Assembly (NCBI GenBank): GCA_963848815.1
Contig: CAWKFY010000031.1
Location: forward strand, 637 to 64,636
DNA: 64,000 bases
Reading direction: 5' to 3'
Origin: an uncultured Chloroflexia bacterium
Lineage (GTDB): Bacteria > Chloroflexota > Dehalococcoidia > GIF9 > UBA5629
Positions 38,489 through 63,476 of this stretch are shown here, piece by piece (within the stretch, counting starts at the first letter, position 1; each line of letters opens with the position of its first letter). The notes beneath the pieces are model-generated. The model did not search any database. It was not told the origin of the DNA and saw nothing but the letters and a program-made list of their open reading frames with translations. A program made the translations under genes and the position numbers.

Positions 38489-38588
38489 TTATTATTACCC
38501 AAATAAAAAAGCCCGTTTTTTCAAGACGGGCTTTTTTATACGAGTTGGTAGCGAGGGCAGGATTTGAACCTGCAACCTTCGGGTTACG
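38489..38588 (-). repeat. repeat unit B: terminator hairpin + 41-43 nt of the tRNA-fMet 3' end
   Basis: ATTATTACCCAAATAAAAAAGCCCGTTTTTTCAAGACGGGCTTTTTT...TGGTAGCGAGGGCAGGATTTGAACCTGCAACCTTCGGGTTA. It aligns with the 3' part of the tRNA at 42237-42311. Confidence 0.8.
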
Positions 38589-38715
38589 TTGACAGTCCTG
38601 CTATACTGGAACAACCATCATTTGGAAAGGGACAACACCAGCATCGGTAGATGAAGCGATGGTGTAAATCTGGGTTTAAGTAGAGACCGTTCGATAAGGA
38701 GGATATATTACGAAT

Positions 38716-39432: not shown

Positions 39433-39455
39433 AGTCTTATCCATCGATTGTAAAA

Positions 39456-39540
39456 CCATTATTACCCAAATAAAAAAGCCCGTCTTAATAAGACGGGCTT
39501 TTTAATACTCTTGGTAGCGGGGCAGGATTTGAACCTGCGA
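39456..39540 (-). repeat. repeat unit C: terminator hairpin + 29 nt of the tRNA-fMet 3' end
   Basis: CCATTATTACCCAAATAAAAAAGCCCGTCTTAATAAGACGGGCTTTTT...TGGTAGCGGGGCAGGATTTGAACCTGCGA. Confidence 0.8.
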
Positions 39541-39569
39541 ATCGATCGGCTCTTGGTATTCCCGTTCCC

Positions 39570-40401
39570 TTACCTCCAGACGATCCTGGGGGCTTTGCGG
39601 ACAGGTATTCTATGGTATTTGAACTTATTATACCCCAGCAGCATAGCTCCATAAGCCTGATGGCCTTCGGGCAGCGCCAGGGCCGCCTGAACCGGAGGGA
39701 AGGTGTTGGCCATCATGTAAACATATCCCGCCCAGCAGGTGGCCAGGCCCAGGCTGTTAGCCGCCAGGTCCAGAAAACTCAAGGCGTTGGCGCTATCAAT
39801 GCCGGCGAGAAGCGAGACTGAGAAATCTTTACTGGCATGGGTAACAATCAATACCGGGGCGCCGCGCAAAAATGCATTGTGGTTCATTTCGTTGTCTTTC
39901 CAGCCTTGCTTGAAAATTGGATTTCTCGGCCATTCCCGGAAGGTTCTCAATTACCCACTTTAGCCAGTCGGTGCCGAGCTCTTCAATGCGGTCCAGCTCT
40001 TTTTTATCGTCGATTACCAGCCATTCCATCTCTTGACGGTTAGACCCTGTCGGCGCGTAGCGGGCGTCCTCTATCAGGCGGGTAATTATTTCGCGTGGTA
40101 CCGGCTTGTTCTTGAAGACCCTGGCCGAACGGCGGCCCTTTAATAGCTGCTCGACCTGTTCCGGAGTTATCTTAAGGCCCTTATTTATCAGCGGAGACTC
40201 TTTTAGCGGCGAGTCCCGATGGCTCAGGCTTCCGCTGGGACACACCACAACGCAATGCCCGCATCCGTTGCACTCAGCTTCAGCCTCTGCTGCTATTTGC
40301 GGGAAACCCCCGTCCGGCAGGGAAATTACCCGGCGGGGACATTCAGCAGCGCAGATGCCGCATTTATTACACGTTTCCTGATTGATTTCAATAATAGACA
40401 T
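39570..40401 (-). pseudogene. 2x[4Fe-4S] ferredoxin-domain / nitroreductase-family fusion, frame break near 39,94x (cargo of module 3)
   Basis: The N-part (ORF 39829-40401) has CNKCGICAAECP and CNGCGHCVVVCP plus a nitroreductase start (RRSARVFKNKPVPREI...APTGSNRQ). The C-part (ORF 39570-39950) continues the nitroreductase fold in another frame. Confidence 0.7.
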
Positions 40402-40424
40402 TTCGTAGAGTTAGAACCTTGAAC

Positions 40425-40535
40425 ACTAAAGTACTCTCACCACGCTGTGTTGCCCTTTTATCGTTCAAAATTATAGCCTAGAGACTTAAGGAGATTCACA
40501 ACCTGGTTGCCGCTAACTTGCGGAAGCTTTGGCAT
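40425..40535 (-). pseudogene. hicA: truncated HicA-like toxin relic
   Basis: The ATG at 40535 overlaps the end of the upstream antitoxin-like gene. Translation MPKLPQVSGNQVVNLLKSLGYNFER, then a stop, then KGQHSVVRV in a shifted frame. This gives about 35 of about 60 expected codons before the next gene. Confidence 0.5.
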
Positions 40536-40725
40536 CTACCATTTTGACCTCGTTCAAAGTTAGTATAATAATAGGTTCGTCAGTATCGCCAAAATGGCAG
40601 GAAACGGCTTCTTTAATATTCTCATACATATCATCAAGTGTTTTGCCATTGGTGAAGATATCCTCGCCAATGCCTCTAGCACACCAATATTCACCATCAA
40701 AATATGTTTCGATCTTTACCAGCAT
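40513..40725 (-). CDS. HicB-like/DUF1902-like antitoxin-fold protein
   Basis: 70 aa. MLVKIETYFDGEYWCARGIGEDIFTNGKTLDDMYENIKEAV matches the HicB N-domain pattern. It is immediately followed by the hicA-like relic. Confidence 0.5.
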   Translation of the reverse strand: MLVKIETYFDGEYWCARGIGEDIFTNGKTLDDMYENIKEAVSCHFGDTDEPIIILTLNEVKMVDAKASAS

Positions 40726-40765
40726 TATTGCCTCCGCTTAACCGGATTATACATCATTTATCTGA

Positions 40766-40836
40766 TGCAAATAAAAAAGCCCGTCTTAAATAAGATGGGC
40801 TTTTTGATACACTTGGCAGCGGGGGCAGGATTTGAA
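40766..40836 (-). repeat. repeat unit D: terminator hairpin + ~23 nt of the tRNA-fMet 3' end
   Basis: GCAAATAAAAAAGCCCGTCTTAAATAAGATGGGCTTTTT...TGGCAGCGGGGGCAGGATTTGAA. Confidence 0.75.
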
Positions 40837-40925
40837 TATAGGACCCGATTGCATTTTTGGTTAAATGTAGCTTCAGAACAGCGTCTCAGAATATATTTTG
40901 AGAAATACTGATCATTTTATCGGCG

Positions 40926-40959
40926 ATTATATACTTGACGCATTTGTCAAGTATATAAT
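40926..40959. repeat. perfect 14-bp inverted repeat with 6-nt spacer
   Basis: ATTATATACTTGAC-GCATTT-GTCAAGTATATAAT, checked base by base. Each arm contains a TTGAC core. Confidence 0.8.
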
Positions 40960-41116
40960 CCCCAATTTATTGATGTTCTGTGGATTTTTAATCCTGTTTG
41001 AGAGCCATGCTATTAAGATACTGGGTAAAGGCCAAGGCATCCAAAAGAACATTGTTGACGGTGCTAATTACTTAGGCTTATGCTATGCGCATCTCAATTG
41101 AGGCAATAGTGTTATA

Positions 41117-41959
41117 ATGCCCGAATTGAAAAATATACCCTTCCGTGGTATCTATGGGTGGTGGTTACACCGTAGCCGGTCTTGCAAGTGCACCCTAATC
41201 TTAGCAGTATTAGCAATTCTGTTCAGCTTGTTTTCATGGTGGTGGAGCAGCACACAAGAGTATTCTTCTTTCACTCTTCTATTCATAACTACGTCTGTAG
41301 TTATTGCAGTGTCAGCTATTATTAGCTCATTAGTATGGGGATGGCAATGGATTAAGGACAATTCCTCAAACTTAAACATCATAGCAACGTTCATAGTGGG
41401 TATGGCATTAGCTAGTTTTGCTTGGCTGACCTATGACCTCTCAAATAGAATGGTACAATATCAAGTCGTGCCTCTTATCCAACCCTATTCGAGAACCCAG
41501 CCTGCGGAATGGAAAATTCCTATTGGAGGCGCCACCTATCAGGGCGTGCTTTGGGATGTTGGTATATTGAACAGTGGGCCCAATTCGACTTTGCTAGACA
41601 GTTTCCGCGTCTATATTTATACACCGCCGAAAATACCATGGGAGCAGATCAATGATCTCTGTGTCTTGCTAGATAAGAACAATAACAATCTGGAAATACC
41701 TAAAATTATTCCAGGTAACACGGATATTGACGTAAGAGTCTTTTTATGTGATGAAAATGTAACTAAATACTTGGATGGTACTACTGGAGTACAAGACAAA
41801 ACTGAATTGTATTTATCCTTTTGGCAAGAAGGACAGTTGGGAAGTAATGACATATCCCGCTTTCAATATATATATAGCGATTTATTCGTACTTCCACCCA
41901 ATACCTTCACCGCCGATGTCGCCCCCAGCTTCTCTGGGAAAATGCCAGTATCCCAATAG
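41117..41959 (+). CDS. hypothetical membrane protein (3 predicted TM helices + ~170-aa C-terminal domain), cargo of module 4
   Basis: 280-aa ORF in AT-rich DNA. I recognise no family. The start codon is uncertain because there is no clear RBS. Confidence 0.45.
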   Translation: MPELKNIPFRGIYGWWLHRSRSCKCTLILAVLAILFSLFSWWWSSTQEYSSFTLLFITTSVVIAVSAIISSLVWGWQWIKDNSSNLNIIATFIVGMALASFAWLTYDLSNRMVQYQVVPLIQPYSRTQPAEWKIPIGGATYQGVLWDVGILNSGPNSTLLDSFRVYIYTPPKIPWEQINDLCVLLDKNNNNLEIPKIIPGNTDIDVRVFLCDENVTKYLDGTTGVQDKTELYLSFWQEGQLGSNDISRFQYIYSDLFVLPPNTFTADVAPSFSGKMPVSQ

Positions 41960-41960
41960 G

Positions 41961-42165
41961 TTACATTTTGTTACCCTTCTGTTACTTTTAAACGCAGCAT
42001 CACGCCCCCAAGATAGTCAATGAGCGATTACGCCATGCCAGCAAACAGATAACGCTTGATACTTATAGCCGTGCTGCCCCTGGGCTGCAGGAAGCTACGG
42101 CAACAGGTTTCGACAAGATAGTGTTGTCCACTCGTAGAAATACTTCCGCTAAAAATCATTATTAG
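41961..42165 (+). pseudogene. 3' relic of a tyrosine recombinase (phage-type integrase) gene
   Basis: Two frames read LHFVTLLLLLNAAS.. and ..HAPKIVNERLRHASKQITLDTYSRAAPGLQEATATGFDKIVL. Together these are the R-H-x-x-A-T-L-L and LGH...TLDTY(catalytic Tyr)S C-terminal box. Only about 65 codons remain and they are frameshifted. The relic ends 72 nt from the tRNA 3' end. Confidence 0.7.
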
Positions 42166-42236
42166 CAATTTATAAGCAAAAATGATAAAGGCCTCCGACT
42201 CTTTAACAGAATCGAAGGCCTTTTAGCTACAGAATT

Positions 42237-42311
42237 TGGTAGCGGGGGCAGGATTTGAACCTGCGACCTTCGGGTTATGAGCCCGACGAGCTGCCACTGC
42301 TCCACCCCGCG
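42237..42311 (-). tRNA. tRNA-Met, initiator type (anticodon CAT), CCA encoded
   Basis: The reverse complement is cgcggggtggagcagtggcagctcgtcgggctcataacccgaaggtcgcaggttcaaatcctgcccccgctacca. It shows a 1:72 mismatch and three G-C pairs closing the anticodon stem, both hallmarks of bacterial tRNA-fMet. Confidence 0.88.
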
Positions 42312-42361
42312 GCATACTTTAGTAGTTAGTGACTCCTGGAGTCTTGTGCTCATACTGTTGT

Positions 42362-45681: not shown

Positions 45682-46416
45682 GTGACCAGGATCAACAGGC
45701 CGGAGTTTAAATTGACATCCAGACAAAGGGCTTTTCTTACAGGCCTTACCGACCTGTACCGCAATATGCAGAAGCCGGTCCACTACAGCGCCATCGCCCA
45801 ACGGCTGGGCCTTTGCTCCTCGACCGCCTACGATATGCTGAAAGTTCTGGAACAGAAGGGCATGGTGGCCTCGCAATATGATACGCCCAAAAAGGCCGCG
45901 GGTCCGGGAAGGGCCAATATCCTGTTCGTTCCCACTGCCCGCACGGTGGCGCAGTTCAGCCTGGACAGTGAGCAAACTGACGAACTGGGTGAATGGGAAA
46001 AAACCAGGACCGATATCATGGCCAGCCTCTCACAATATAAATCATCCGACCGCTATAAAATATCCCGCCGCCTGTTGAGGCAGTCCAACAAGGTCCCTTC
46101 ACCCCTGGCCAGCGCTGCCCGTATATTGGCCGCGCTGCTGATAAGCTTAAAGAATAACAGGCGCAGCCCTGAAGAAAAGGGCTGGTTCAACATGCTGTTA
46201 AAAGCTCCGGTTACCAGCCCGGGCATGAGCTCGGTGGCCGGGCTTATACTGGGGCTCTCGCTGGCGGATAGAAAGGCGGGAAAGCTCCTAACAGGCTACC
46301 AGGAATATATCCAGCGCTATATCACCGCCATACAGAATATGAGCAACGATAACCTGCTGCTGCTTCAGCAGTTCACCCTCGATGCATGGGCCAGGCTGCA
46401 GGGTGGGCCCGCCTAA
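45682..46416 (+). CDS. winged-helix DNA-binding protein (putative transcriptional regulator)
   Basis: 244 aa with a GTG start. The N-terminal wHTH-like segment is HYSAIAQRLGLCSSTAYDMLKVLEQKGMV. Confidence 0.45.
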   Translation: MTRINRPEFKLTSRQRAFLTGLTDLYRNMQKPVHYSAIAQRLGLCSSTAYDMLKVLEQKGMVASQYDTPKKAAGPGRANILFVPTARTVAQFSLDSEQTDELGEWEKTRTDIMASLSQYKSSDRYKISRRLLRQSNKVPSPLASAARILAALLISLKNNRRSPEEKGWFNMLLKAPVTSPGMSSVAGLILGLSLADRKAGKLLTGYQEYIQRYITAIQNMSNDNLLLLQQFTLDAWARLQGGPA

Positions 46417-46445
46417 TGATATAACGAATACTTGGGAGGTATGCC

Positions 46446-47288
46446 ATGATCAAAATCGTTACGGACAGCAGTTGCGACCTTTCGGAGGAAATTGTAAAAG
46501 ACCTGGGGATAACTGTGGTCCCGCTGTCCGTGCGTTTCGGCGAGGAGATCTTCAAGGAGCGGGTGACCATCACCGATGAGCAGTTCTACCACAGGCTGGT
46601 GGAGGGATCCATCCATCCCGCCACCATCCAGCCTAACGCCACGGACTTCATCGCCGCCTATGAAAAGGTCGGCCAGGGCGCCGACGGCATTGTCTCCACT
46701 CATATCACGCTGGTATTGAGCGGCACCATCAACTCGGCCAGGCAGGCCAAGGACCTGGCCAAAATCAGTTGCCCCCTGGAGATAGTGGACTCCAAACTGG
46801 TGAGCATCGCGCTCGGCGCAGTGGTGATAGCCGCCGCCGAGGCAGCCAAACAAGGTAAGCCGATGGCAGAAGTCCTTCAGGTGGCAAATGAGGCCATTGC
46901 AAATACACGCGCACTGGCCCTGCTGGATACGCTCAAGTACCTGCAGGCCGGTGGACGCATCGGCAAGGCCACAGCCTTCATTGGCACACTGCTGAGCATC
47001 AAGCCCATCATATCCATTAAAGACGGCGGCATCATACCTTTCGCCAGGGCACGCAGCTTCGCCAAGGGACTGGAACAGCTTGTGGCCTTCGTGGGCGACG
47101 GCCAGGGCATCGATGATATCCTGATCGCCTATACCACCGTCGAGGGCGAAGCCAGGGATCTGGCCGAACGCATATCAAAGATATATACCCGCAAGCCTGT
47201 CAAGGTGATGAGGCTGGGTACCACGCTGGGGGTCCATGTGGGGCCGGGGGCCATCGTCCTGGTTGTGCGCGATAAAGCCAAACAGTAA
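46446..47288 (+). CDS. DegV family fatty-acid-binding protein
   Basis: 280 aa. The pattern MIKIVTDSSCDLSEEIVKDLGITVVPL...TSQP-like...LSGTINSA is typical of DegV. Confidence 0.85.
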   Translation: MIKIVTDSSCDLSEEIVKDLGITVVPLSVRFGEEIFKERVTITDEQFYHRLVEGSIHPATIQPNATDFIAAYEKVGQGADGIVSTHITLVLSGTINSARQAKDLAKISCPLEIVDSKLVSIALGAVVIAAAEAAKQGKPMAEVLQVANEAIANTRALALLDTLKYLQAGGRIGKATAFIGTLLSIKPIISIKDGGIIPFARARSFAKGLEQLVAFVGDGQGIDDILIAYTTVEGEARDLAERISKIYTRKPVKVMRLGTTLGVHVGPGAIVLVVRDKAKQ

Positions 47289-47298
47289 ACGACTGAAA

Positions 47299-48105
47299 TC
47301 AGATATTCGAGCCAAGCTCAATAATGCGATATCCTCCCGCCCCCAGGTTAAAGACCTGCGTTTTTCCGACCCGGGCAAATCCTGCGCTTTCGTGTATATG
47401 CCCGCAGAAAAGGTAGTCCGGATGCCGCTGCTCGATGTATTCAAGAATAGCCTTGCTGCCGGCATGCCGGCCGATCCAGTTGGGCGGTATCGATGCCGAA
47501 TCGACCCTATCCAGAACGCCGTATGGTGGGATATGGGTAAGCAATATATCGACGGGCCCGAAGCGTTCGAGCACGCGCTGCACAAGCTGGGTATCTTTGG
47601 CAGCGATTTTCCTTATCTTTTCTATGCCTGAAAGTTCGAATTCTTTGGCCCAGCTCAGGTCGGTGAAATATTTGATTCCCCCTATCCTCAAACCATTTGT
47701 TACAGCAACACGGTTATCTATCAGGCGAACTCCTTTGACCGTCAGCAGGGCACTGTATAAAAAAGGCAATTCGACATTGAACGTGCGAGCGAACTTCCTG
47801 GTATCGTGGCCGGAGAGGTCTGCGTTGCCGCGAACGATCAGGACCGGGCAGTATCCAGCCAGATAACGGACTATCTCCAGGGCAGTCTCATAGGTGCGTA
47901 AGAAGGCCTGTCTGAAACCTTCGGCATGGGCTTTTGTTTCCCCGGGCGTAGGCTGAGATATAGCCAGGTAATCAAGGGCCTGCCTGCGTAAGATGTCAGT
48001 CCGGCCGAGGTCGCCGGTCAGCAGCGCCAGGTCAACATCATTAAGAGGGATACTGCGGATTCCCTTAAGGTTACCATGCGGGTCGCCAATGGCAGCTATC
48101 CTCAT
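47299..48105 (-). CDS. metallophosphoesterase (calcineurin-like)
   Basis: 268 aa. Motifs IGDPHG, GDLG, GNAD and GHIH are present. Confidence 0.75.
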   Translation of the reverse strand: MRIAAIGDPHGNLKGIRSIPLNDVDLALLTGDLGRTDILRRQALDYLAISQPTPGETKAHAEGFRQAFLRTYETALEIVRYLAGYCPVLIVRGNADLSGHDTRKFARTFNVELPFLYSALLTVKGVRLIDNRVAVTNGLRIGGIKYFTDLSWAKEFELSGIEKIRKIAAKDTQLVQRVLERFGPVDILLTHIPPYGVLDRVDSASIPPNWIGRHAGSKAILEYIEQRHPDYLFCGHIHESAGFARVGKTQVFNLGAGGYRIIELGSNI

Positions 48106-48126
48106 AAAAAACGGCGGATCGGTGGT

Positions 48127-48447
48127 TTATACAAAGGGCCGGCCCTGCGCATCTTTGGTAATAGTGCAGATATCGACTATGACCCATATATACACAATAA
48201 TCGGGACTACAACTGTCCAGCAAAGTAGTACTGCAAGCAGTAATTGGGCTACCGCTTTTCCGGTATATCCGGCATAAAAATTATGTATGCCGAAAAGACC
48301 CAGAAAAACGCCTAATAATATATAACCTATCTTGCTTTTTGCTTCCGGCGTGCTGATAACCGCAGCTGTATTACTTGTTGCTACACCGCAGTGCACACAA
48401 ATGACGGCATCGTCAGGTATTTGATTCCCACATTGCTTGCAGAACAT
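48127..48447 (-). CDS. zinc-ribbon + TM2 domain membrane protein
   Basis: 106 aa. It has CKQCGN...CVHCG followed by two TM helices with GIHNFYAG (TM2 pattern). Confidence 0.7.
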   Translation of the reverse strand: MFCKQCGNQIPDDAVICVHCGVATSNTAAVISTPEAKSKIGYILLGVFLGLFGIHNFYAGYTGKAVAQLLLAVLLCWTVVVPIIVYIWVIVDICTITKDAQGRPFV

Positions 48448-48566
48448 CCGTTACCTCCCCCTCAATAATTTCCACATTATACCGATTGTTTTTTTTAAAC
48501 GGCCACCGCTGCCGCAGCTTTATATTATATTAAACTTTGAAATATTTCACATCTACGGACTCAGGT

Positions 48567-48668
48567 CTATTCCCACTCTATAGTTGAAGGAGGCTTGCTG
48601 AGAATGGCGAAGGTCTGCCACATCTCACGATACAGTTTGGCCTTTTTAATCTCGTTCATCACGATCCA
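48567..48668 (-). repeat. displaced, internally deleted copy of the guaA 3' end (left boundary repeat of the islet)
   Basis: 48567-48600 matches 50561-50594 (34 nt, 3 mismatches, including the stop and last 11 codons of guaA). 48601-48668 matches 50787-50854 (68 nt, 1 mismatch). The 192 nt at 50595-50786 are absent from the left copy. Confidence 0.85.
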
Positions 48669-49001
48669 ATGGAACAATATAGTATATTCCAATTATTTTC
48701 TAATAGTACGAAATATACAATAAATTATATTTTGCTTTTTACTCAGGTAAAAATATAGCGAAATTCGAGGATTTAATAAAATTTCCTATTGATTTCACCT
48801 GGGTATTATGTTATTCTTCTATGCAGGTCGATTATGTATTTATATTTTTCGTATGATACAATCATCTGATAAAACAAATTGACCTAATACGAGTGGGGGA
48901 GGTTTATATAGAGAGGTTATATTGGGTTTTATTCAATGGCTTTCAGTTACCAGATTTCAAAGATTTATCCTTTTGGAATAATAGGGTTGGAGGAGGTAAA
49001 T

Positions 49002-49277
49002 ATGGCAAGTAAAAATATAGAACCACAGAAAATTAACCTTGATGAGTTACTAAAAAAGGACCGAAAGTTTCTGCTCGCAATGATCGATAATCCCAAAGAT
49101 GCGTTTAATAAGCAACGTATACGCATAGACAATAAATCTATCAGCAGTATGAATGCTGCCGCTGACCGGCTGAGAATGCAGGCAATTGCAGCATTTTCAG
49201 ATATTGCAAAAGACGGTTTAAATAATTGCTATAATTGTAAGGGCTTCGCTAGCGGTGATGCCACAAGCCCCATGTGA
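49002..49277 (+). CDS. 91-aa candidate RiPP precursor peptide
   Basis: GGAGGAGG lies 6 nt upstream of the ATG at 49002. Translation: MASKNIEPQKINLDELLKKDRKFLLAMIDNPKDAFNKQRIRIDNKSISSMNAAADRLRMQAIAAFSDIAKDGLNNCYNCKGFASGDATSPM. It has a long helical leader-like N-part and a short Cys-x-x-Cys C-terminal tail, and sits directly upstream of a radical SAM/SPASM gene. The 48936 start in the ORF track has no RBS. Confidence 0.6.
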   Translation: MASKNIEPQKINLDELLKKDRKFLLAMIDNPKDAFNKQRIRIDNKSISSMNAAADRLRMQAIAAFSDIAKDGLNNCYNCKGFASGDATSPM

Positions 49278-49407
49278 TGAGACTTTAGTTGACACGCAGG
49301 ACGGCGATTAACTTTATTGTCTTGTTATTACGTATAGCTATTTACAGTGCCAAAAATACTGCTTATATTAGCCGTATTTGTATTTTGCTTGTCAGGCTTT
49401 ATTGACG

Positions 49408-50527
49408 ATGTCCAAACCAGTGATTGCCCCATATTTGCTATCAAATGCAATAGTCTTCCCAATCGGTTTTCACTGGGACATTACACAGACTTGCAATTTC
49501 CAATGTAACTTCTGCCTGAATAGTTCGGGTAAATGCTCTCCTAATGAGCTGTCCTTTTCACAGAAAATAGAGCTTGTCGATCGCTTATTTGACCTTGGCG
49601 TGATGTATATTCGTATTCTCGGCGGGGAACCGTTTTCAATACCGAATACCATAGCTATCATGGAATATGCTGTATCACGAGGCATGCAATTATCATTCAG
49701 TACCAACGGCAGCCTACTGACCGATGGAATTGTCTCGGCTCTGGCCAGGATAAGAAAAGGTATTAGCTACATCCAGATAAGTCTCTATGGTTCAACACCA
49801 TCCGCCATGGCACGAATTACTAACTCTGAAAGCTCCTTCCCGAAGGTAACAATATGGGATGCAGTTATTAAGGCGGTACAGATTACCGTTTACTGTACTG
49901 GTAGTGATATGCCGTGAGAATATGGATGATGTCGTGCCCCTCTATGAGTACGCTAAAGCCATGGGTGCAGAAAATTTTAAATTAGTTTTGAAAGTTGATA
50001 CTGGAAGGGGTCAAAACACTGCGTCTTTTAGCTCAATTCAAACTGCACAGGATTGGAGTAATGTTATTTTGGTATTGCAGCGAATTGCATACCTTAATCA
50101 AAAATCCAGCCTAAAAGTGCAATATAATGCACGGCCTTTATTGGGAAAGTATATTAATGAAAGATTTGGTATTGGCTATTTTTGCAATTTTTGTGAAGCG
50201 GGAGTTAGCTATCTATACTGCAATCCAATCGGAGGCCTCAGCCCTTGCCCGTTTCTCAAAGATTCCGATACCGATTATTTATTCGATAGTGCCGGCCAAT
50301 TCGTTTTTAATGTAACCCGAAACAGCCTGCAGGATGTGTGGGATTCTAATGAATTCAATCGATTCCGCAAACTGTTTACATTGAATGATAATAAGGAATT
50401 ATTCAATATGAATTGTCCGAATTTACACAGCGGGGCGTGCCGTCCATGTGTGCTGTCGGGATGTCCATGTCTTCACCATATTCGTTGCTTTCAGGCAGCC
50501 ATTTCAGATTCAAGAATTACCAATTAG
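49408..50527 (+). pseudogene. radical SAM enzyme with C-terminal SPASM-like Cys cluster (peptide-modifying maturase candidate); one frame break near 49,882
   Basis: The CNFQCNFC (CxxxCxxC) motif is at 49492-49515 and ILGGEPF follows. After the frame switch the sequence reads LPFTVLVVICRENMDD...CNFCEAGVSYLYCNPIGGLSPCPF...CPNLHSGACRPCVLSGCPC (50183-50470). This combines ORFs 49378-49917 and 49859-50527. Confidence 0.75.
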
Positions 50528-50560
50528 TAAAACAAAGATCATTAAGACAGAATAGGTCAT

Positions 50561-52164
50561 CTATTCCCACTCAATGGTTGAAGGAGGTTTGCTGGTTATA
50601 TCGTAGACCACTCGGTTTACGCCGGGCACTTCGTTGACGATCCTGTTGGATATAGCGGATAAAAGAGGATACGGCAGCCTCGCCCAGTCGGCCGTCATGG
50701 CATCCTGACTGGTCACCGCTCGCACCGCTACCAGGTATCCGTATGTCCTGAAGTCGCCCATAACGCCCACGCTGTGCACATCGGTAAGAATGGCGAAGGT
50801 CTGCCACATCTCGCGATACAGTTTGGCCTTTTTAATCTCGTTCATCACGATCCAGTCAGCGCCCCGCAATATCTCCAGCTTTTCCCTGGTGACCTCGCCT
50901 ATGATACGGATAGCCAGGCCGGGACCCGGGAAGGGCTGACGCCAGACCATATCTTCCGGCAAGCCGAGCTCCAGCCCAACCTTGCGCACTTCGTCCTTGA
51001 AAAGGTATCGCAGCGGTTCGATCAACGTCAGCGCCATTTTGGCCGGCAGGCCGCCCACGTTGTGATGCGTCTTGATCTTGGCAGCCGCTTTGGTCTCGGG
51101 GGTAGCGCTTTCGATAACATCCGGGTACAACGTGCCCTGTGTCAGAAAATCTATCTTGCCCAGCTTGGTTGCCTGCCTCTCAAAGACCCTGATGAATTCC
51201 TGGCCGATTTGCTTTCTCTTCTGCTCCGGATCGATTACGCCTTTGAGCTTTTTCAGGAAGTTGTCGGTGGCATCCACATAAATCACGTTCATGCGCAGGT
51301 TTTTACGGAAGGTATTGAGTGCTCTTTCAGGCTCCTCGCGCCTGAGCAAACCATTATTAACAAAAATACATGTGAGCTGGTCGCCTATGGCAGCGTGCAC
51401 AAGTTTGGCTGCAACGGCAGAATCGACCCCGCCGGATAGAGCGCAAATTACCTTGCCACCATGTACCTGCGACCTTATAGCGCCGATGCTTTCATTAATA
51501 AAATTGCCGGGCGTCCATGTGCCCTTGCAGCCGCAGACCCGGTAAAGGAAGTTTTTAATGATATTGATGCCTTCCGGCGTGTGCGCTACCTCAGGATGAA
51601 ACTGCAGGCCGAAGGTCTTGCGGCCGTCGCTGATCACTGCATTGGGTGAATTTTCCGTGTAGGCGGACGATTTGAATCCCGGGGGCATATCTATCACCTG
51701 GTCGCCGTGGCTCATCCACACCGAGAGTGATTCGGGCAGGCCTCTGAACAGAGGCGATCTTTCATCGCTCACGTGCAAGACAGCCTGCCCGTATTCACGT
51801 TTGGCGCCCGGCGCAACGGTGCCGCCAAGCTGATGGGTGATCAGCTGCATGCCGTAGCAGATGCCGAGAACCGGAAGGTGGCTTTCATAGATGCCAACCG
51901 GCGTCAGCGGAGCTTTCTTCTCATATACGCTGGCAGGGCCGCCCGAGAGGATAAAGCCGCGGGGGTGGATGGCCATGATCTGTTTAGAGGGGCGTCATGC
52001 GGGAAAAGCTCGCAATATACATTGCATTCCCTGACGCGGCGTGCTATCAGGTGGCTGTACTGGGAGCCGAAATCGATGATGGCGATGGCTTCTTTTACGC
52101 CGTGCGGACACTTCGCCCGGTTTGGGGGCAGCCTGTACTCCCTGAAGCTCTTTGGCGATTTCAA
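50561..52164 (-). pseudogene. guaA: GMP synthase (glutamine-hydrolysing); frame break between the GATase start and the rest; 5' end uncertain
   Basis: ORF 50561-51976 (471 aa) runs from ...[10 protein letters not shown] through the ATP-PPase motif SGGVDS to ...PPSTIEWE. The GATase N-terminus [31 protein letters not shown] is in another frame (ORF 51904-52164). Confidence 0.9.
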
Positions 52165-52339
52165 GATAGGCCGAAACTTCGGCGTCGTCGGTGGTGGCTA
52201 CGCGGTGGCTGCCTGTTTCTTCTTTACCCTTCTTCATTGGAAAAGTATATCACAGGGCAAGCAGAGCATTCCAATGTGAGCCATATTTAAACTATGGCGC
52301 GATTTAGAGTACAATTTCTCTGTAAAATCCGCCCGTAAA

Positions 52340-52984
52340 ATGGAAAATAAAGCAATTTTGAAAACACTCTCGCCTACTCTTATGACCGGGTAAACCGGGC
52401 CGTGGCCGTCCTCCGGGAAGGCGGTATCGTGGCCTATCCCACGGATACCGTTTACGGGCTGGGCGCCGATATATATAACGATGAGGCGGTGAGAAGGATA
52501 TTACAGCATCAAGGACCGTCCCCTGAACCAGCCTTTGCCGGTGTTGATAGCGGATGCCGGATCAGGCCGGAATGCTTGACTGGCAGTCAACCCAAATTGG
52601 CGCAAATACTGATGAAAAGGTTCTGGCCGGGCGGCCTGACAATCATCTTGGACAAAAGTCCCGAGTTCAACAGCCTGGTGCTGGCCGGAGGCCATAAAAT
52701 AGGCATCCGCATGCCGGCTCACAAGGTGGCCAGGGCCATGATCGAGAAGCTGGGACGGCCGATTGTAGGAACGAGCGCCAACCTGCATGACAGGCAGCGG
52801 CTTTAACCGCCGCCGAAGTGCGAAAACAGCTCGGTGGCCGGGTGGATATCATCTGAACGGCGGCACATGCCCGCGGCGGCAGGGAATCGACCGTCATCGA
52901 CATGACAGTGGATCCGCCGTCATCGTAAGGCAGGGAATAGTACCCGAAGAGGGAAATCCTGGCCCTAATAAAAACAGGGGGTAG
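52340..52984 (+). pseudogene. tsaC: L-threonylcarbamoyladenylate synthase (TsaC/YrdC/Sua5 family), multiple frame breaks
   Basis: Fragments in different frames: MENKAILKTLSP / NRAVAVLREGGIVAYPTDTVYGLGADIYNDEAVRRI / IKDRPLNQPLPVLIADAG / LAQILMKRFWPGGLTIILDK...IGIRMPAHKVARAMIEKLGRPIVGTSANLH / LTAAEVRKQLGGRVDIILNGGTCPGGRESTVIDMT. Confidence 0.8.
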
Positions 52985-52989
52985 TTAAT

Positions 52990-53443
52990 ATGCTAATCGC
53001 CATGGGAAGCGATCATCGCGGGACTCGACCTTAAAGATAAAATCTCTGAGTTATCTCAAGGCCAATGGTCATACCGTGATAGACTTCGGCATGTTACGGC
53101 AGCGAATCGGTGGATTACCCGGATTTCGCCTCACGCGGTGGCACAATCGATCATGACCGGCAAGGCCGAACTACGGCATCCTGATTTGCGCTACGGGCAT
53201 AGGCATGTGCATAGCCGCCAACAAATTCAAAGGTATCAGGGCGGCGCTATGCTGCAACCCGGAGCTGGCTGTGCGCGCCCGCCGGCATAATGATGCCAAT
53301 GTGCTCTGCCTGGGCGCTGATTTTGTAGCGTGCCGCAGATGCGCTGGAAATCGTCAAGGAATTTCCTGGCAACGGGCTTCGAAGGCGGCAGGCACCAGCG
53401 ACGGCTGGATAAAATATCGGAAATTGAGTCGCAGTTTGCTTGA
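52990..53443 (+). pseudogene. rpiB: ribose-5-phosphate isomerase B, multiple frame breaks
   Basis: Fragments: MLIAMGSDHRG / DLKDKISE / GHTVIDFG / VDYPDF / [48 protein letters not shown] / [17 protein letters not shown]. Confidence 0.8.
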
Positions 53444-53547
53444 CAATAAATAATTACCTGTGATAGTTTACTACAACCCTATTCCTCAAATCTGGCAATC
53501 CCTATCAAACTCAGCAGGAATATGGACAGGAAGGAGGTATTCTTCAC

Positions 53548-55232
53548 ATGAGAAGCGACAGCATCAAACAGGGTATCGAAAGGGCTCCGCACCGGGCGCT
53601 GCTAAGGGCCGTCGGCGTACGCAGCAGCGATTTCGACAAGCCGTTCATCGGCATCGTCAACAGCTTCAACGAGATCGTTCCCGGGCATATCCACCTGCGC
53701 TCGATCGCCGATGCGGTCAAGGCCGGCGTGCTCAGCGCCGGCGGCGTTCCCTTCGAGTTCAACACCATCGGCGTCTGCGACGGCATCGCCATGAACCATC
53801 CCGGCATGAAATACAGCCTGCCCAGCCGCGAGCTGATCGCCGACTCGGTGGAAATCATGGCCGAAGCGCACCACTTCGATGCGCTGGTCTTCATCCCCAA
53901 CTGCGACAAGATCATCCCCGGCATGCTGATGGCTGCCGTGCAGGCTTGAACGTGCCGTCCATCTTCATCAGCGGCGGCCCCATGCTGGCCGGCAGACTGC
54001 ATGAAAGACGGCAAGCCGCAGGCCGTCGACCTGATTTCGGTTTTCACGGCCGTGGGCAGCGTAGCGCAAGGCAAGATGACCGAGGCCGAGCTTGAAGCAG
54101 ATCGAGATCGCGGCCTGCCCGGGCTGCGGAAGCTGCTCCGGCATGTACACGGCCAATACCATGAACTGCCTGACCGAGGCGGTGGGCATGGCGCTGCCGG
54201 GCAACGGCACCATCCCGGCCGTCGATTCCCGGAGGCTGCACCTGGCCAGGGAAGCCGGCAAGCAGATCATGGGCTTCTTAGAGAAAAATCTCTGTCCCAG
54301 GGATATCATCACCAAAGAATCCATCGACAACGCCTTCGCGGTGGATATGGCGCTGGGCGGCAGCACCAACTCGGTGCTGCATTTCATGGCCATCGCCCAC
54401 GAGGCGGGCATCAAATTCCCGCTGTCCCTTGATAAATGAGATAAGCGACAAGGTGCCGCATCTGTGCAAGATCAGCCCGGCCAGCGATGTCCATATCGAA
54501 GACCTCGACCGGGCGGGCGGCATACCGGCCGTGATGCACGAGATCAGCCAAGCTGCTGAACGGCAACGCCAAAACTGTCACGCTCAAGCCGCTATCCGAC
54601 ACCTATAAGCAATGCCAGGGTACGGAACCACGAGGTCATCCGGCCATTTTCCAAACCTTTCTCGAAGACGGGCGGCCTGGCCATCCTGTTCGGCAACCTG
54701 GCGCCGGGCGGGGCGGTGGTCAAGAGCGGCGCCGTAGCGCCGGAGATGATGGTGCACACAGGGCCCGGCCCGGGTCTTTGAAAACGAAGAGGACGCTACC
54801 AAAGGCATCATGGCCGACAAGATCAAGAAAGGCGACGTGGTGGTCATCCGCTATGAAGGCCCGAGGGGCGGCCCGGGCATGCGGGAGATGCTGACGCCCA
54901 CTTCGCTGCTAAGCGGCATGGGACTGGACAGCTAGGTAGCATTGATAACCGACGGGCGTTTTTCGGGCGGCACCAGGGGCGCGGCCATCGGGCACGTGGT
55001 CCCGGAAGCTGCCGACCGCGGCCCCATAGCCGCAGTACAGAATGGTGATATAATCAGTATAGATATACCTGCCAGGAAGCTGGAAATCAAGGTCAGCGAG
55101 GCTGAGATTAAAAGACGGCTGAAGAAGCCTGCCTCCATTCAAGACGCAGCATCAAGGGCGGTTACCTGAAGAGATATATTGAAAAGGTCGGCCCTGCCAG
55201 CGAGGGCGCAGTATTCAAAGATTCAGGAGTAA
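53548..55232 (+). pseudogene. ilvD: dihydroxy-acid dehydratase; at least 8 frame changes plus an in-frame TAG at 54933-54935
   Basis: The ordered IlvD segments are readable only by hopping frames: [19 protein letters not shown]...[13 protein letters not shown] / [16 protein letters not shown] / KDGKPQAVDLISVFTAVG..AELE / [24 protein letters not shown]... / [16 protein letters not shown]... / [11 protein letters not shown] / [31 protein letters not shown] / [10 protein letters not shown]...[19 protein letters not shown]...[22 protein letters not shown]... / [19 protein letters not shown]. Confidence 0.88.
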
Positions 55233-55241
55233 CTGGCACAG

Positions 55242-56937
55242 ATGATGAAAACCGGCGCAGAAATACTATGTGAATGTTTGATTAAAGAGGGAGTCGAGGT
55301 TATCTTCGGCTTCCCCGGCGGTGTGCTGCTGCCCTTGTACGATACGCTGCCCAAATACCCGCAACTGCGGCACATCCTGGTCAGGCACGAGCAGGGCGCA
55401 GCGCACGCCGCCGATGCCTATGCCAGGGTGACCGGCAAGATCGGCGTTTGCCTGGCTACCTCCGGCCCCGGCGCAACCAACCTGGTTACCGGCATTGCCA
55501 ATGCCTACCTGGATTCCGTGCCCGTACTGGCCATAACCGGCCAGGTCAACACGTTCTTCATCGGTAAGGACGCCTTCCAGGAAATCGATATCACCGGCAT
55601 TACCGTCCCGATCACCAAGTACAACCAGCTGGTACTGGATACTGGCGACATCGCCAGTGCTGTGAGGGAAGCAATCCACGTGGCCCAGACCGGCAGGCCC
55701 GGTCCCGTGCTGCTGGATATACCGAAGGACGTATTCCAGAACAAGACGGAGTTCGTTTTCCCCGAAAAGATCGACCTGCCCGGCTATAAGCCGAAGCTGT
55801 TCGGCCATCCTTCGCAGATCAAAAAGGCGGCAGACCTTATCAACAGCGCAGAGCGGCCGGTCATTATCGCCGGGCGCGGCGTCAATATATCACGGGCATT
55901 CCCCGAGCTAAAAGAGCTGGCCGAGAATTCACAGATACCGGTGGTGACCACTTTTCTCGGCATCGGCTGTTTTCCCGAGTCCCACGTGCTCAGCTACGGA
56001 TGGCTGGGCATGCACGGCATGGGTTACGCCAATAAAGCGGTGCACAGCTCCGACCTGCTTATCGCCATCGGGATGAGATTCGATGACAGGGCGACCGGAG
56101 GCACAAGCACTTTCGCACCCGCAGGCACAGATCATCCATATCGATATCGACGCGGCGGAGATAGGCAAGAACCTGCCGGCCGATGTACCGATCGTCGGGG
56201 ATGTAAAGAACATATTGCAGGTGCTCAATAAGCAGATAACCAAACGCGAGCATATGATCTGGCTATCCCAGCTGGACGAATGGCGGTCATTGCATCCCGC
56301 CACTGAAATAAGGGAACATGAGAATGTGCTGCCGCAATATATCATCCGGCAAATACATGAAGCCACCAAGGGCGATACGATCATATGTACCGACGTCGGC
56401 CAGCATCAGATGTGGGCCGGGCAGTATTTCTTCTATGACAAGCCCAATAGCTTCGTGTCGTCCGGCGGCCTCGGCACGATGGGTTTTGGTCTGCCCGCAT
56501 CCATCGGCGCCAAGATCGGTGCACCGGACGAAACAGTCTGGTGCCTTTGCGGCGACGGCGGTTTCCAGATGACCGTTCAGGAGCTGGCCACCATAGCCCA
56601 GGAAAACCTGGATATCAAGATAGCCGTATTTAATAACGGCTGGCTGGGAATGGTGCGCCAGTGGCAGGAGCTGATCTACAGCAAGCGTTACTTCGGTACG
56701 CAGCTCTACAACCCCGATTTCGTCAAGATCGCCGAAGCATACGGCATTGAGGCGGTCAGGGTAAGTAAGAAGATCGACGTGAGGCCCGCGATACATAAGG
56801 CCATGTCGCATAACGGGCCTTTCCTGATCGAGTTCGTGGTCGAGCCGGAAGAAAACGTTTATCCGTTCGTCCCTCCCGGTAAGATAATTGTGGAGTTCCT
56901 GGAGATGCCCAGCCCGACAGCGAGCCGGAAGAAATAA
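55242..56937 (+). pseudogene. ilvB: acetolactate synthase large subunit; frame break near 56,11x-56,13x
   Basis: ORF 55242-56231 (MMKTGAEILCECLIKEGVEVIFGFPGG...GMRFDDRATG..STFAP) continues as AQIIHIDIDAAEIGKN...GGLGTMGFGLPA...FNNGWLGMVRQWQ in ORF 56083-56937. Confidence 0.9.
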
Positions 56938-56968
56938 GCAACTCTAGATCATTAATGGAGACATTCAG

Positions 56969-57538
56969 TTGAACAGAAAACACATACTGGTAGCGCTTGT
57001 GCAGGACCGTCCAGGCGTGCTCAATCGCATTGCCAGCACCCTCAGAAGGCGCAATTTCAATATCGACAGCATTGCCGTGGGCAGCATCGAGGTCCCGCAT
57101 CTTTCGCGCATGACCATAGTGGTCGAAGGAGATGACGCCAAGGTCGAGCAGGTAAGAAAGCAGCTCGATAAGATAGTCGAGGTCATCAGGATAACGGATA
57201 TCACCAACGATAACCCGGTGGCCCGCGAGATGGCCATGATCAAAGTAAAGGCCTCGCCTTCAACCCGCAGCGAGATCATCCAGATCGTCGATATCTTCAG
57301 CGGCAACATCGTCGATGTATCCCCTGATTCGCTGATAATCGTGGTAACCGGCAATCAGGAAAAAGTGGAGACGTTGATCGAGTTACTGCGCGGCTTCGGC
57401 ATAAGGGAGCTATCGAGGACCGGCACCATAGCTCTGCCCCGCGGAGGGGCAGGACCGCTTACGATCGAAGAAGACAAGCCTCTGCGCCATGCCGTCGAGC
57501 ATGTTCCTCCGGAGGAAGAAAACCTTCCCAACTGGTAG
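56969..57538 (+). CDS. ilvN: acetolactate synthase small (regulatory) subunit
   Basis: 189 aa with a TTG start. The ACT domain reads ILVALVQDRPGVLNRIASTLRRRNFNIDSIAVG. This is the only uninterrupted ORF in the ilv-leu block. Confidence 0.88.
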   Translation: MNRKHILVALVQDRPGVLNRIASTLRRRNFNIDSIAVGSIEVPHLSRMTIVVEGDDAKVEQVRKQLDKIVEVIRITDITNDNPVAREMAMIKVKASPSTRSEIIQIVDIFSGNIVDVSPDSLIIVVTGNQEKVETLIELLRGFGIRELSRTGTIALPRGGAGPLTIEEDKPLRHAVEHVPPEEENLPNW

Positions 57539-57590
57539 CTTATTCTGACTCTTCTGAAATCACTATAATTAATTGCATTTTTATTTTTAG

Positions 57591-58591
<1,001 letters not shown>

Positions 58592-58632
58592 CCGGCACAG
58601 TGGCTTCCTGAATAAATCAAAGCAGGTGGATA

Positions 58633-60174
58633 ATGAAAGGTGAACGTGTCCTTATTTTTGATACGACTCTCAGCGATGGGGAGCAGGCGGCCGGCACCAG
58701 CCTGAACTCCAAGGAAAAGCTCGAGATAGCCAGGCAGCTTGAGAGCCTTGGCGTAGATATCATCGAAGCCGGATTCCCCATCACTTCGCAGGGCGATTTC
58801 GACGCCGTGCGCCTCATATCCAAGGAGGTCCGCAACTCCACGATCTGCGCCCTCAGCCACGCCAATGACGAGGCGATCGACAGGGCCTGGGAATCCATTA
58901 AAAAGGCTAAAAGGGGCCGGATCCATATCTTCCTGTCCACATCAGAGGAACATCTGAAATACCAGTTAAAAAGAGCCACGCCGAGGTTGTGAAGATGGCT
59001 GTGGCATCGGTCGAGCACGCCCGTAAACTCTGTGAAGACGTGGAGTTCACGCCCATGGATACCACCAGGACGGAGGTCAAATTCCTCTACCAGGTGATCG
59101 AACGTGTCATAGAGGCCGGCGCCACCACGGTCAACATAGCCGACACGGTAGGCTATGCCATCCCGTACCGAGTTCGGCAAGCTGATAGAAGGCATCTTCA
59201 AGAACGTGCCCAATACTTCGAAGGCGGTAATCAGCGTCCACTGCCATAACGACCTGGGCATGGCGGTGGCCAACAGCCTGGAAGCCGTGCGCAGGGGCGC
59301 CCGGCAGGTCGAATGCACCGTCAACGGCATCGGCGAGCGGGCCGGCAATGCCGCGCTTGAAGAGATGGTCATGGCCCTCAAGACCCGGGAGCGACCAGTA
59401 CCATATAACAACCGACATCAACACCACACAGCTATATAAGACCAGCAGGATGGTCAGCGAGCTGACCGGCTTCGTCGTGCCCCAGAACAAGGCCATCGTG
59501 GGCGCCAACGCCTTCCGCCACCAGTCCGGCATCCACCAGGACGGCATCATCAAAAAAGTCGAACACCTATGAGATTATGGACCCCAAGAACGTGGGCGTG
59601 CCGGCCAGCGCACTGGTGCTGGGCAAGCTGAGCGGCAGGCACGCCTTTAAAGAAAGGCTGCTGGAACTCGGCTATTCGCTGGACGAGGAGGCGCTCAACC
59701 ATGCATTCAAGGCCTTCAAAGAGCTGGCAGATAAGAAGAAAGAAGTCACCGACCGTGATATCCAGTCCCTGATCGGCGAAGAGATGCGCACGGCCTCGGA
59801 AGTTTATCACCTGGACCATGTGGGCGTGTCCTGCGGCAACCACAGCATACCTACGGCCACGGTCAGGCTGATCGGGCCGAACAGGGAAGTACTGGCGGAT
59901 GCCGCCCTGGGCACCGGCCCGGTGGACGCCGTTTACAAGGCTATCAACCGCCTGGTGCGCGTGCCCAACAAGCTGACCGAGTTCAGCGTCAACTCGATCA
60001 CGGCAGGGCATAGACGCCATGGGTGAGGTGCTGATACGCATCGAGAGCGACGGCGCAAGCTATACCGGCCGCGGCGCAGATACCGACATCATCGTCGCCA
60101 GCGCCAAGGCATATATGAACGCGCTTAACAGGCTGCTGTCCAACAAGCGGTCGCAGGAAGCAGGTCGACAATGA
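58633..60174 (+). pseudogene. leuA: 2-isopropylmalate synthase; at least 5 frame breaks
   Basis: [16 protein letters not shown]...[17 protein letters not shown] / [18 protein letters not shown]...[11 protein letters not shown] / [41 protein letters not shown]...ALKTR / [20 protein letters not shown]...[14 protein letters not shown] / [11 protein letters not shown]...FSVNSITAG / [16 protein letters not shown]...NRLL. The first break is an A6-to-A5 run at about 58,970. Confidence 0.9.
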
Positions 60175-60575
60175 ACCCTGAAATTGAAGCCGCGCTGCGT
60201 TTGCTGCTGGCCGCCGCACTGGGAGCGGTCATCGGCTTCCGAGCGTGAGTTCGCCACAAGCCGGCCGGACTGCGCACGCACATACTGATCTGCATGGGAT
60301 CGGCTCTGTTCACCGTGGTATCGGTAATGGGGTTCTCAGGTACGGTCGACCCTTCCAGAGTGGCGGCAGGTGTGGTGACCGGCATCGGTTTCATCGGCGC
60401 CGGCGTGATATTTCGCGGGGCCAGGGGAGATAAGGTAGTCGGCATTACCACGGCGGCCAGCATCTGGGTCACGGCCGCCATCGGCATTGCCGCCGGGGTC
60501 GGAATTTATATCATCGCCGTAGCAGTGACCGTGATTACCGTGCTGGTGCTCTTCATACCCAGGGTCAAAGGTTAA
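60171..60575 (+). pseudogene. MgtC/SapB-family membrane protein; frame break near 60,245
   Basis: [23 protein letters not shown](RA-stop) is followed by RHKPAGLRTHILICMGSALFTVVS...GIGFIGAGVIFR...AASIWVTAAIG in the frame of ORF 60294-60575. The ATG overlaps the leuA stop (ATGA). Confidence 0.7.
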
Positions 60576-60600
60576 TAATAACTTACAGGAGCAATATACT

Positions 60601-61857: not shown

Positions 61858-62361
61858 TGACACTGAAAGGTAAAGTTTTTAAATACGGCGACAATGTGGA
61901 TACGGACGCCATCATACCGGCGCGATACCTGAACCTGTTCGAGCCGGCCGACCTGGCGGCACACTGCATGGAAGATATCGATGCCGATTTCGTCAACAAG
62001 GTAAAGCCGGGCGATATCATCGTGGCCGACATCCAATTTCGGCTGCGGCTCTTCCCGTGAGCATGCGCCGGTGGCCATCAAGGCATCGGGCATCTCCTGC
62101 GTCATAGCCAAAAGCTTCGCACGCATATTCTTCCGCAACGCCATCAACATCGGCCTGCCGCTGCTCGAATGCGAGGAGGCAGTGGACAACATCAAGGCGG
62201 GCGACATGGTGGAGGTCGACCTGGCCACCGGCAAAATAACCAACCTGTCCACCGGCAAGACATTCACCTCCAAAGCCTTACCCCGATTTCATGATGCAGA
62301 TAGTCGATGCCGGCGGGCTGGTGGAATACACCAGAAAAGAAACTGGCGGGAGCGAAGTAGC

Positions 62362-62365: not shown

Positions 62366-63476
<1,111 letters not shown>

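Follow-up and report, generated by a model that had tools for sequence, protein, structure and literature searches.

How an AT-rich cassette of two genes came to lie directly behind guaA, the gene for GMP synthase, between the end of that gene and a second, partial copy of the same end, is the question raised by a locus in an uncultured Chloroflexia bacterium (Dehalococcoidia in the GTDB lineage; GenBank assembly GCA_963848815.1, contig CAWKFY010000031.1). The locus lies in a stretch of 64,000 nucleotides (positions 637 to 64,636 of the contig, forward strand), referred to here as the window, on which all window coordinates are counted from its first nucleotide. Staphylococcal pathogenicity islands integrate at guaA. 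An initial annotation of the window, made from the letters alone, had described the cassette as an islet inserted at the guaA 3' end by an element carrying its own copy of that end, and had named the guaA 3' end as a known insertion site, which is indeed documented (PMC5704250, PMC9376610): elements with tyrosine recombinases target the guaA terminus in Actinobacteria and in alpha- and gamma-proteobacteria, with ATE-1, a Brucella IncP island and GIsul2 as named examples (PMC5704250).

The best explanation of this locus is that it is the scar of a recombination at the guaA 3' end, in which a small foreign module was placed behind the gene and guaA itself was kept intact. The module carries a precursor and a maturase gene for a predicted ribosomally synthesized and post-translationally modified peptide (RiPP), and the islet belongs to a known class of insertion scar, being notable only for the absence of a recombinase gene. 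We know of no integrase-bearing island targeting guaA in the Dehalococcoidia, to which the guaA 3' end as a landing site is now extended.

A displaced copy of the guaA 3' end

The guaA gene (50561..52237, minus strand, ~558 codons; Pfam GATase, NAD_synthase and GMP_synt_C) is intact from codon ~88 to its stop codon. Its product is 93-94% identical in amino acid sequence to that of Dehalococcoidia guaA genes, and at the nucleotide level no relative is closer than ~83-87%. A repeat search and a BLASTN comparison of the window with itself both identified two segments of the 3' part of this gene that recur in direct orientation on the far side of the islet. The first, block B (50787..50854, minus strand), matches 48601-48668 at 67 of 68 positions (E = 5e-29), and the second, which comprises the last codons of guaA, its stop codon and one nucleotide beyond (50560..50594, minus strand), matches 48566-48600 at 32 of 35 positions (E = 2.6e-7). 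Both matches are significant, and they reproduce the coordinates first given for the repeat, 102 nt with 4 mismatches and a 192-nt internal deletion. In the displaced remnant (48567..48668, minus strand) the 68-nt block is fused to the last 34 nt of guaA, and a 41-residue open reading frame (ORF) across it matches the TIGR00884 model (guaA_Cterm). The 192 nt (64 codons) that lie between the two segments in guaA, at 50595-50786, are absent from the remnant, with a deletion junction that is in frame and shows at most 1 nt of microhomology. The displaced tail, originally at least 294 nt long, is now reduced by this deletion to 68 + 34 nt and lies 1.9 kb downstream of guaA. The only other dispersed repeats revealed by BLASTN across the 64 kb belong to an array of tRNA-fMet 3' ends described below.

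Both tail copies have the same translation, in which 23 residues are joined to 10. All four mismatches between them fall in third codon positions and are synonymous, an outcome with a chance probability of ~0.001-0.003, given that 18-23% of random single changes in that frame are synonymous; this suggests that at least some of the differences between the tails accumulated in working guaA genes. The last 41 nt of block B (50814-50854) are identical to 48628-48668, the sequence GAGTGGGAATAGA within the guaA terminus shows no difference between the two copies, and GAGTGGGA, which covers the E-W-E codons, occurs unchanged in both. Identity between the tails is 96%, whereas the same two blocks average 86-88% between family members, and both tails carry the codons CCT CCT TCA, seen in no relative, which argues that neither copy stems from a distant donor. 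At the K and I codons the remnant has the family consensus (AAG, ATA) and the functional gene has the derived forms (AAA, ATT). A distant-donor origin of the last 294 nt of guaA was likewise rejected, because the similarity ranking of guaA to its relatives shows no break at -294 from its end. The possibility that the retained blocks are merely the most conserved parts of guaA was also discarded, since their conservation is only marginally higher (0.86-0.88, versus 0.83), which does not account for 96% identity. The sequences that follow the two stop codons resemble the native spacer of two relatives (L174 and L175) over 10-13 nt, which is too short to weigh.

The segment between the repeats (48669-50560) has a GC content of 0.384, the lowest of all 1.9-kb stretches in the window (median 0.509, 5th percentile 0.451). 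The AT-richness initially reported for it is therefore real, but the islet was also said to stand out from both flanks, and its left flank is itself low in GC and not native-like.

Empty sites in relatives and the extent of the foreign DNA

In the window, 2,455 nt separate the guaA stop (50561) from the ATG (48105) of a metallophosphoesterase gene (47299..48105, minus strand), which Pfam and the relatives identify as the native downstream neighbor of guaA. In 14 relative contigs (L001, L174, L175, L176, five with P0094 and five with P0083) the metallophosphoesterase gene follows guaA after 12-21 nt, with tsaC divergent upstream, and in the two closest guaA relatives (L187 and L188) guaA reaches the 23S rRNA promoter within 24-183 nt. 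None of these 16 unoccupied contigs harbors a second guaA tail, and none was found away from the stop codon in any of the 91 related loci whose downstream sequence was long enough, which were searched by BLAST of the last 400 nt of guaA against their flanks and for exact occurrences of the terminal 12-mer. By comparison with its relatives, the islet was indeed inserted at the guaA 3' end, as had been claimed; far from all close relatives carrying the same 1.9 kb without the repeat, 16 contigs are unoccupied.

A single locus among the 91, in a Dehalococcoidia chromosome (L017:9396-9430, OY761986.2), has a 14-nt tandem copy of the guaA terminus at the stop codon, where GAGTGGGAATAATC occurs twice. 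A recombination footprint or replication slippage could explain this sole case.

The foreign DNA does not end at the remnant. Between it and the metallophosphoesterase gene lie a 119-nt spacer (48448..48566, minus strand; GC 0.39), in which a TATAAT box and a GGGGGAGG ribosome-binding site can be read, and the gene that they would serve, encoding a 106-aa membrane protein with zinc-ribbon and TM2 domains (48127..48447, minus strand; Pfam TM2 and Zn_Ribbon_1; GC 0.44). The TM2 protein matches phage family phrog_10292 (E = 3e-20) and has homologs of 38-45% identity on viral contigs, its gene has no match in any related locus, and exact look-ups of this protein and of the precursor peptide returned no record. 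Since the spacer and the TM2 gene are both low in GC and absent from relatives, the foreign segment is 48106-50560, comprising the RiPP pair, the guaA remnant, the spacer and the TM2 gene. The insert is thus 2.45 kb in two parts rather than 1.9 kb in one, as first delimited, and the guaA remnant sits inside the foreign DNA, with a foreign block on either side of it. A candidate third, vestigial guaA tail, ACCACCGATCCGCC, was considered in the gap between the TM2 and metallophosphoesterase genes (48113-48126) and rejected, its match of 10-11 of 14 positions being, by estimate, what chance alone could give.

A second lineage with the cassette beside guaA

Two Logan contigs (L084 and L085), assembled from short reads of two samples (SRR18214722 and SRR18214549), carry a cassette that is 79% identical in nucleotide sequence to that of the window. 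In L084 a homologous spacer of 31 nt separates the maturase stop codon from the last 34 nt of guaA, with which the contig ends, so that the right junction (spacer plus guaA stop) is, as aligned, common to the window and L084. At its opposite end L084 opens with guaA-like sequence in the same orientation (57 nt, 19 residues), which then gives way to an IS1595 relic. Laid on guaA, the contig ends overlap by one base and fit a 59-nt perfect direct repeat ending exactly at GAGTGGGA, as would be expected of an assembly graph with k = 31. The putative inter-repeat segment spans ~2.1 kb. The IS1595-family transposase relic (L084:58-377), fused to the guaA-tail remnant, retains only positions 2-64 of the DDE domain and matches Pfam below cutoff (E = 5e-5).

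The guaA tail of L084 is ~80% (79.5%) identical to that of the window and at best 86% identical to that of any relative, from which it follows that the remnant matches its own host's guaA in both organisms. Synonymous divergence (dS) between the two cassettes is ~0.7-0.9, a value whose comparison with guaA is limited by the AT-rich cassette saturating at a lower proportion of synonymous differences and by only 90 nt of guaA being known for the L084 host. At such divergence the identity of the remnants to the functional ends is nevertheless 96% in the window and 100% over 59 nt in L084, which excludes a purely vertical history without homogenization and suggests that the tails have been kept alike by conversion or that docking was recent in each lineage. 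That both lineages have the same minimal content, with no recombinase, is mild evidence that what persists or moves is a small unit and not a large island, and this recurrence, with tails that match each host, offers a testable case for how such units flanked by attachment (att) sites do so.

Recombination at the guaA terminus as the probable origin of the islet

An intact target gene, a displaced direct copy of its 3' end, foreign cargo between the two and empty sites in relatives are the classical product of recombination between a chromosome and a circle that bears a copy of the 3' end of the gene. Because the unit lacks a recombinase gene, it would be an att-flanked, integrase-less element in the sense of the cis-mobilizable elements (CIMEs) or of CR2-sul2, and we assign a probability of roughly 0.5 to the proposal that a unit of this kind docked at the guaA terminus in front of an older TM2 remnant. 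The module would have entered as a circle whose attachment region carried a guaA-like 3' end, and a tyrosine recombinase would have acted either at the conserved terminus, in which GAGTGGGAATAGA is identical in both copies, or upstream of it. Of the two tails, one would then belong to the resident gene and the other to the element; the recombinase gene would lie outside the unit, supplied by a neighboring or since-lost element, and the TM2 gene beyond the remnant would be what is left of an earlier insertion at this position. With its direct repeats the cassette could also be lost by RecA-dependent recombination, and such loss is predicted to be clean; the 192-nt deletion in the remnant would lower that risk. 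The initial proposal of an element that displaced the original guaA end with its own is borne out by the intact gene, the displaced partial tail, the foreign composition and the empty sites; the site-specific recombinase that it implies is putative.

The closest parallels are to be found among elements that use 3' ends of genes as targets. CR2-sul2, a unit that has no integrase and is flanked by att copies, is moved by the GIsul2 integrase, which acts at the guaA core GAGTGGGA (PMC9376610). Like CR2-sul2, the islet is a small cargo without its own integrase between copies of the guaA 3' end; the same core is found here in both copies and in L084 marks the end of the perfect repeat. The two differ in that the adjoining GIsul2 encodes the integrase and mobilization was shown experimentally, whereas the islet is known from sequence alone and no integrase is seen; in that CR2-sul2 carries a resistance gene in gamma- and beta-proteobacteria and the islet a RiPP pair in Chloroflexota; and in that a short core with element-specific arms contrasts with a guaA repeat of at least 294 nt. 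CIMEs, described in streptococci along with tandem accretion at the 3' ends of genes, retain attL and attR and lack integration and transfer genes (PMC5704250). The islet shows the same combination, with putative att sites, and further resembles accretion arrays in the second low-GC block (TM2) beyond the internal att copy and in the decayed tRNA-fMet array of the same window. Unlike them, it has no relic of conjugation or mobilization genes and its TM2 block lacks a distal att copy; descent by deletion from an integrative and conjugative or integrative and mobilizable element would be putative, and no integrase-bearing element with the same att at guaA was found in the window, in L084 or in ~40 Chloroflexota relatives.

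The third system is e14, a 15-kb prophage of Escherichia coli K-12 that encodes its own integrase and is excised upon SOS induction (PMC13626634, Hill et al. 1989 PMC210168). This prophage provides icd with a new 3' end, while the original one persists as the icdC fragment, and the two ends differ mostly at synonymous sites (PMC13626634). A 3'-end replacement of this type is what the putative displacement at guaA resembles: the target gene is open to its stop codon, the displaced end survives as a far-side fragment (48567-48668) and the differences between the two are synonymous only. The islet departs from e14 in its size (2 kb versus 15 kb), in its lack of a recombinase and in the 192-nt internal deletion of the displaced end. 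With the known guaA-targeting islands it shares the target, the last guaA codons, and the direct repeats of the terminus, but all of these carry an int gene next to att and the islet does not. An integrase-bearing island at guaA was therefore rejected as a description, although target-end direct repeats and empty sites are present, and so was a unit bounded by a transposon or insertion sequence, as the window islet has no terminal inverted repeats and no transposase and L084 has only its internal IS1595 relic.

Several observations weigh against the reading as an integrase-less att-flanked unit. Searches with Pfam, NCBIfam, PADLOC and PHROGs revealed no integrase, excisionase or replication gene on the ORFs of 48106-50560, in agreement with what had been noted before, and in a tblastn search with the intact integrase of L187 the sole match in the window was at 42007-42156, with none near guaA. 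The L084 inter-repeat segment contains no integrase either, and the intact integrase-bearing islands that had been envisaged behind guaA in relatives did not materialize: in ~40 Chloroflexota relatives the first two ORFs behind guaA are housekeeping genes of the purD, purE and purB type, with no integrase among them. The guaA tails are not repeated elsewhere in the set beyond the 14-nt tandem copy of L017, no direct repeats flank the distant cassette homologs (L086-L103), and no recognizable att copy of the TM2 block exists at the metallophosphoesterase side. The original duplication of at least 294 nt is far longer than usual att cores, and the resemblance of the remnants to their own host's guaA in both lineages fits homologous recombination or gene conversion equally well. 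Lastly, the only sequencing run found for the islet (X1, at trace depth) contributes two 151-nt pieces, inside the TM2 and maturase genes, and leaves the junctions without reads; no run matched a 10-kb control stretch.

A possible, if clearly less probable, origin is recombination driven by homology itself, in which a non-replicating circle with the cassette and a few hundred nt of the guaA 3' end entered by a single RecA-dependent (Campbell-type) crossover in guaA, so that all of the shared segment was duplicated; the circle could arise by recombination between the repeats in a donor, and gene conversion or loss and re-entry would keep the repeats alike. A duplication of 294 nt or more, possibly with a little spacer sequence added, is the size expected of homologous recombination, and the copies are lineage-specific, with CCT CCT TCA in the window and a 59-nt perfect repeat in L084 whose tail is only ~80% like that of the window. 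Both the lack of an integrase in either lineage and the absence of a phylogenetic discontinuity in guaA at -294 agree with this account. It leaves unexplained, however, the first event that put the cassette beside guaA, and such circles have no known transfer route. Moreover, identity in L084 stops exactly at the GAGTGGGA core of known guaA-specific integrases (PMC9376610), and the nearby tRNA-fMet array shows recombinase-type accretion operating in this genome.

A bolder version of the integrase-less att-flanked reading, which we regard as doubtful, holds that the 2-kb cassette is itself mobile, with a guaA-derived arm by which it docks at the last guaA codons, using either RecA or a recombinase provided in trans, making this terminus a gene-collecting dock across phyla. 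If so, the minimal content shared by two lineages diverged by ~20%, each with a near-perfect copy of the guaA tail of its own host, would reflect recent repeated docking and not two large islands decayed to the same stump.

A one-off illegitimate capture in the spacer between guaA and the metallophosphoesterase gene, by break repair or template switching, is less plausible again. It would have duplicated the tail and left an immobile unit, inherited vertically by the lineages of the window and L084, with conversion of the tails and loss of the cassette elsewhere through the repeats. The homologous right junction in the two lineages is what a single ancestral event predicts, the divergence of the cassettes (79% nucleotide identity) is about that of the guaA tails between the hosts (79.5%), no recombinase lies anywhere near guaA and the phenomenon is rare in Chloroflexota. 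A neutral remnant dating from a split at dS of at least 0.7 should nevertheless be heavily decayed, and those observed are 96% identical and 100% identical over 59 nt. Frequent conversion must hence be assumed, even for a 34-nt block, four differences that are all synonymous are unlikely in an unconstrained copy, and several independent losses are needed among the 16 cassette-free relative contigs.

That the second tail or one junction is an artefact of a misassembled error-prone long-read or hybrid contig is very improbable: the contig changes abruptly in quality near 51,950, the maturase gene contains a 1-nt indel and no reads of run X1 span the junctions, but an independent short-read assembly of another organism (L084/L085, two samples) has the cassette-guaA junction and a far-side tail copy, four differences and an in-frame 192-nt gap are unlike the product of a collapse or chimera, and both junctions lie within the well-assembled part of the contig.

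Integrase-driven accretion at a neighboring tRNA-fMet

A scar array and an integrase relic lie 6 kb from the islet. In the array (37376-42352) the tRNA-fMet 3' end is present in five direct copies, with a hairpin next to each. The modules that these copies delimit are small and AT-rich, and they lie between a tRNA-Met that is degenerate (37421-37499) and an intact tRNA-fMet (42237-42311). The relic is the C-terminal part of a tyrosine integrase (42007-42156, plus strand, ~50 codons) and contains ERLRHASKQITLDTYS; it is 52% identical (tblastn, E = 8e-11) to the intact 394-aa integrase encoded beside 23S/tRNA-fMet in L187, and its 57-aa ORF was not recognized by Pfam. Together, the array and the relic indicate that integrase-driven accretion and decay occur in this lineage, and the islet and the array mark the guaA-23S-tRNA-fMet neighborhood as its plasticity zone.

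In L187, an apparently live island beyond 23S/tRNA-fMet (13267-17468) encodes the integrase, an HTH_17 excisionase-like protein, a 449-aa protein and a He_PIG-domain protein, which implies that the tRNA-fMet site is active in this family.

The cargo is a predicted RiPP precursor and maturase pair

As initially described, a peptide gene and a radical S-adenosylmethionine (rSAM) enzyme gene, here identified as precursor and maturase, are the only content of 48669-50560. The precursor peptide (49002..49277, plus strand, 91 aa) has a conserved leader, KKDRKFLLAMIDNPKDAF, and a C-terminal NNCYNCKGF core. The radical SAM/SPASM maturase (49408..50527, plus strand; Pfam Radical_SAM and SPASM) has 372 aa once an extra A at 49851 is removed, contains the cluster motif CNFQCNFC and aligns end to end, at 80% amino acid identity, with the intact P0001. 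Upstream of the precursor gene lies the AT-rich leader or promoter region of the cassette (48669..49001; GC 0.285), partly conserved in L084 (70-80%), and the maturase stop is followed by a 32-nt spacer (50528..50559; 33 nt to the stop codon) that leads to the repeat at the guaA stop and is homologous to the L084 spacer. No terminator-like site was found in the 33 nt between the convergent maturase and guaA ends (50528-50560). Transcription of the cassette may run antisense into guaA.

Homologs of the precursor adjoin the rSAM gene in L084-L104, and the pairing is kept across these loci, which come from many metagenomes, with one to three precursors per locus and a leader consensus of xDKxFLLxMIDDPxxAF. 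By the presence of a precursor gene beside a SPASM maturase gene, in conserved pairing, the cargo is a predicted radical SAM/SPASM RiPP cluster. Curated RiPP families (mycofactocin, sactipeptide StsB, NHLP/Os1348, SCIFF and others) were considered and none was reached, all NCBIfam scores being below cutoff: the leaders score 14-19 bits against the NHLP-clan model NF038399 (cutoff 40), and the best score of the maturase is 117 bits, against TIGR03962 (cutoff 265). An assignment of the rSAM protein to pVip by PADLOC was set aside as resting on generic matches to the radical-SAM core.

In comparison with the L084 homologs, the ratio of nonsynonymous to synonymous substitution rates (omega) is 0.15 for the enzyme and 0.21 for the peptide, which argues that the cargo is maintained by purifying selection. 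The islet had been offered as a possible stranded remnant, a description that fits poorly with a cargo under purifying selection and with the same minimal content in a second lineage. No close relatives of the maturase were found in species-representative genomes or viral contigs, and an alignment-based scan of metagenome contigs returned rSAM homologs of at most 47% identity, none of them beside guaA. The distant cassette homologs (L086-L103) lie in unrelated contexts, the one in L086/L087 being 57% identical. Directly upstream of the precursor gene, L086 (7774-9348) and L087 (392-1966) carry a gene for a 524-aa RVT_1 reverse transcriptase, among housekeeping genes. The islet shows how a streamlined, uncultured lineage acquired a peptide-natural-product gene pair, and the 91-aa NNCYNC-tailed precursor and its uncharacterized rSAM/SPASM enzyme constitute a defined two-gene target for heterologous expression.

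Sequence quality and neighboring genes

Frameshifts rise abruptly from ~51950 to 64000, whereas the 50 kb to the left read cleanly. The 5' part of guaA contains two apparent 1-nt frameshifts, at ~51985 (AAA for AAAA) and at ~52105 (an extra T), and tsaC (from 52402) and ilvD (from 53548) are broken into several ORFs; the region ~51950-64000 looks like an unpolished or differently assembled stretch. Within the islet, the extra A at 49851 is missing from a 151-nt contig of short reads from run X1, and without it the 372-aa maturase ORF is restored, so that this frameshift is to be attributed to an assembly indel or a strain variant, not to decay, and it is probably a 1-nt assembly indel.

On the other side of the islet, genes for DegV and for a winged-helix regulator (45682-47288) lie between the metallophosphoesterase gene and the 23S promoter. 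A 98-nt tRNA-Asp (atc) predicted by ARAGORN at 47055-47152 (minus strand), which was placed inside the DegV coding sequence and received no Rfam call, is very likely a false positive. In L174 the 23S promoter comes immediately after the metallophosphoesterase stop, which indicates that the 1.7-kb DegV block, of native-like GC, is also lineage-specific.

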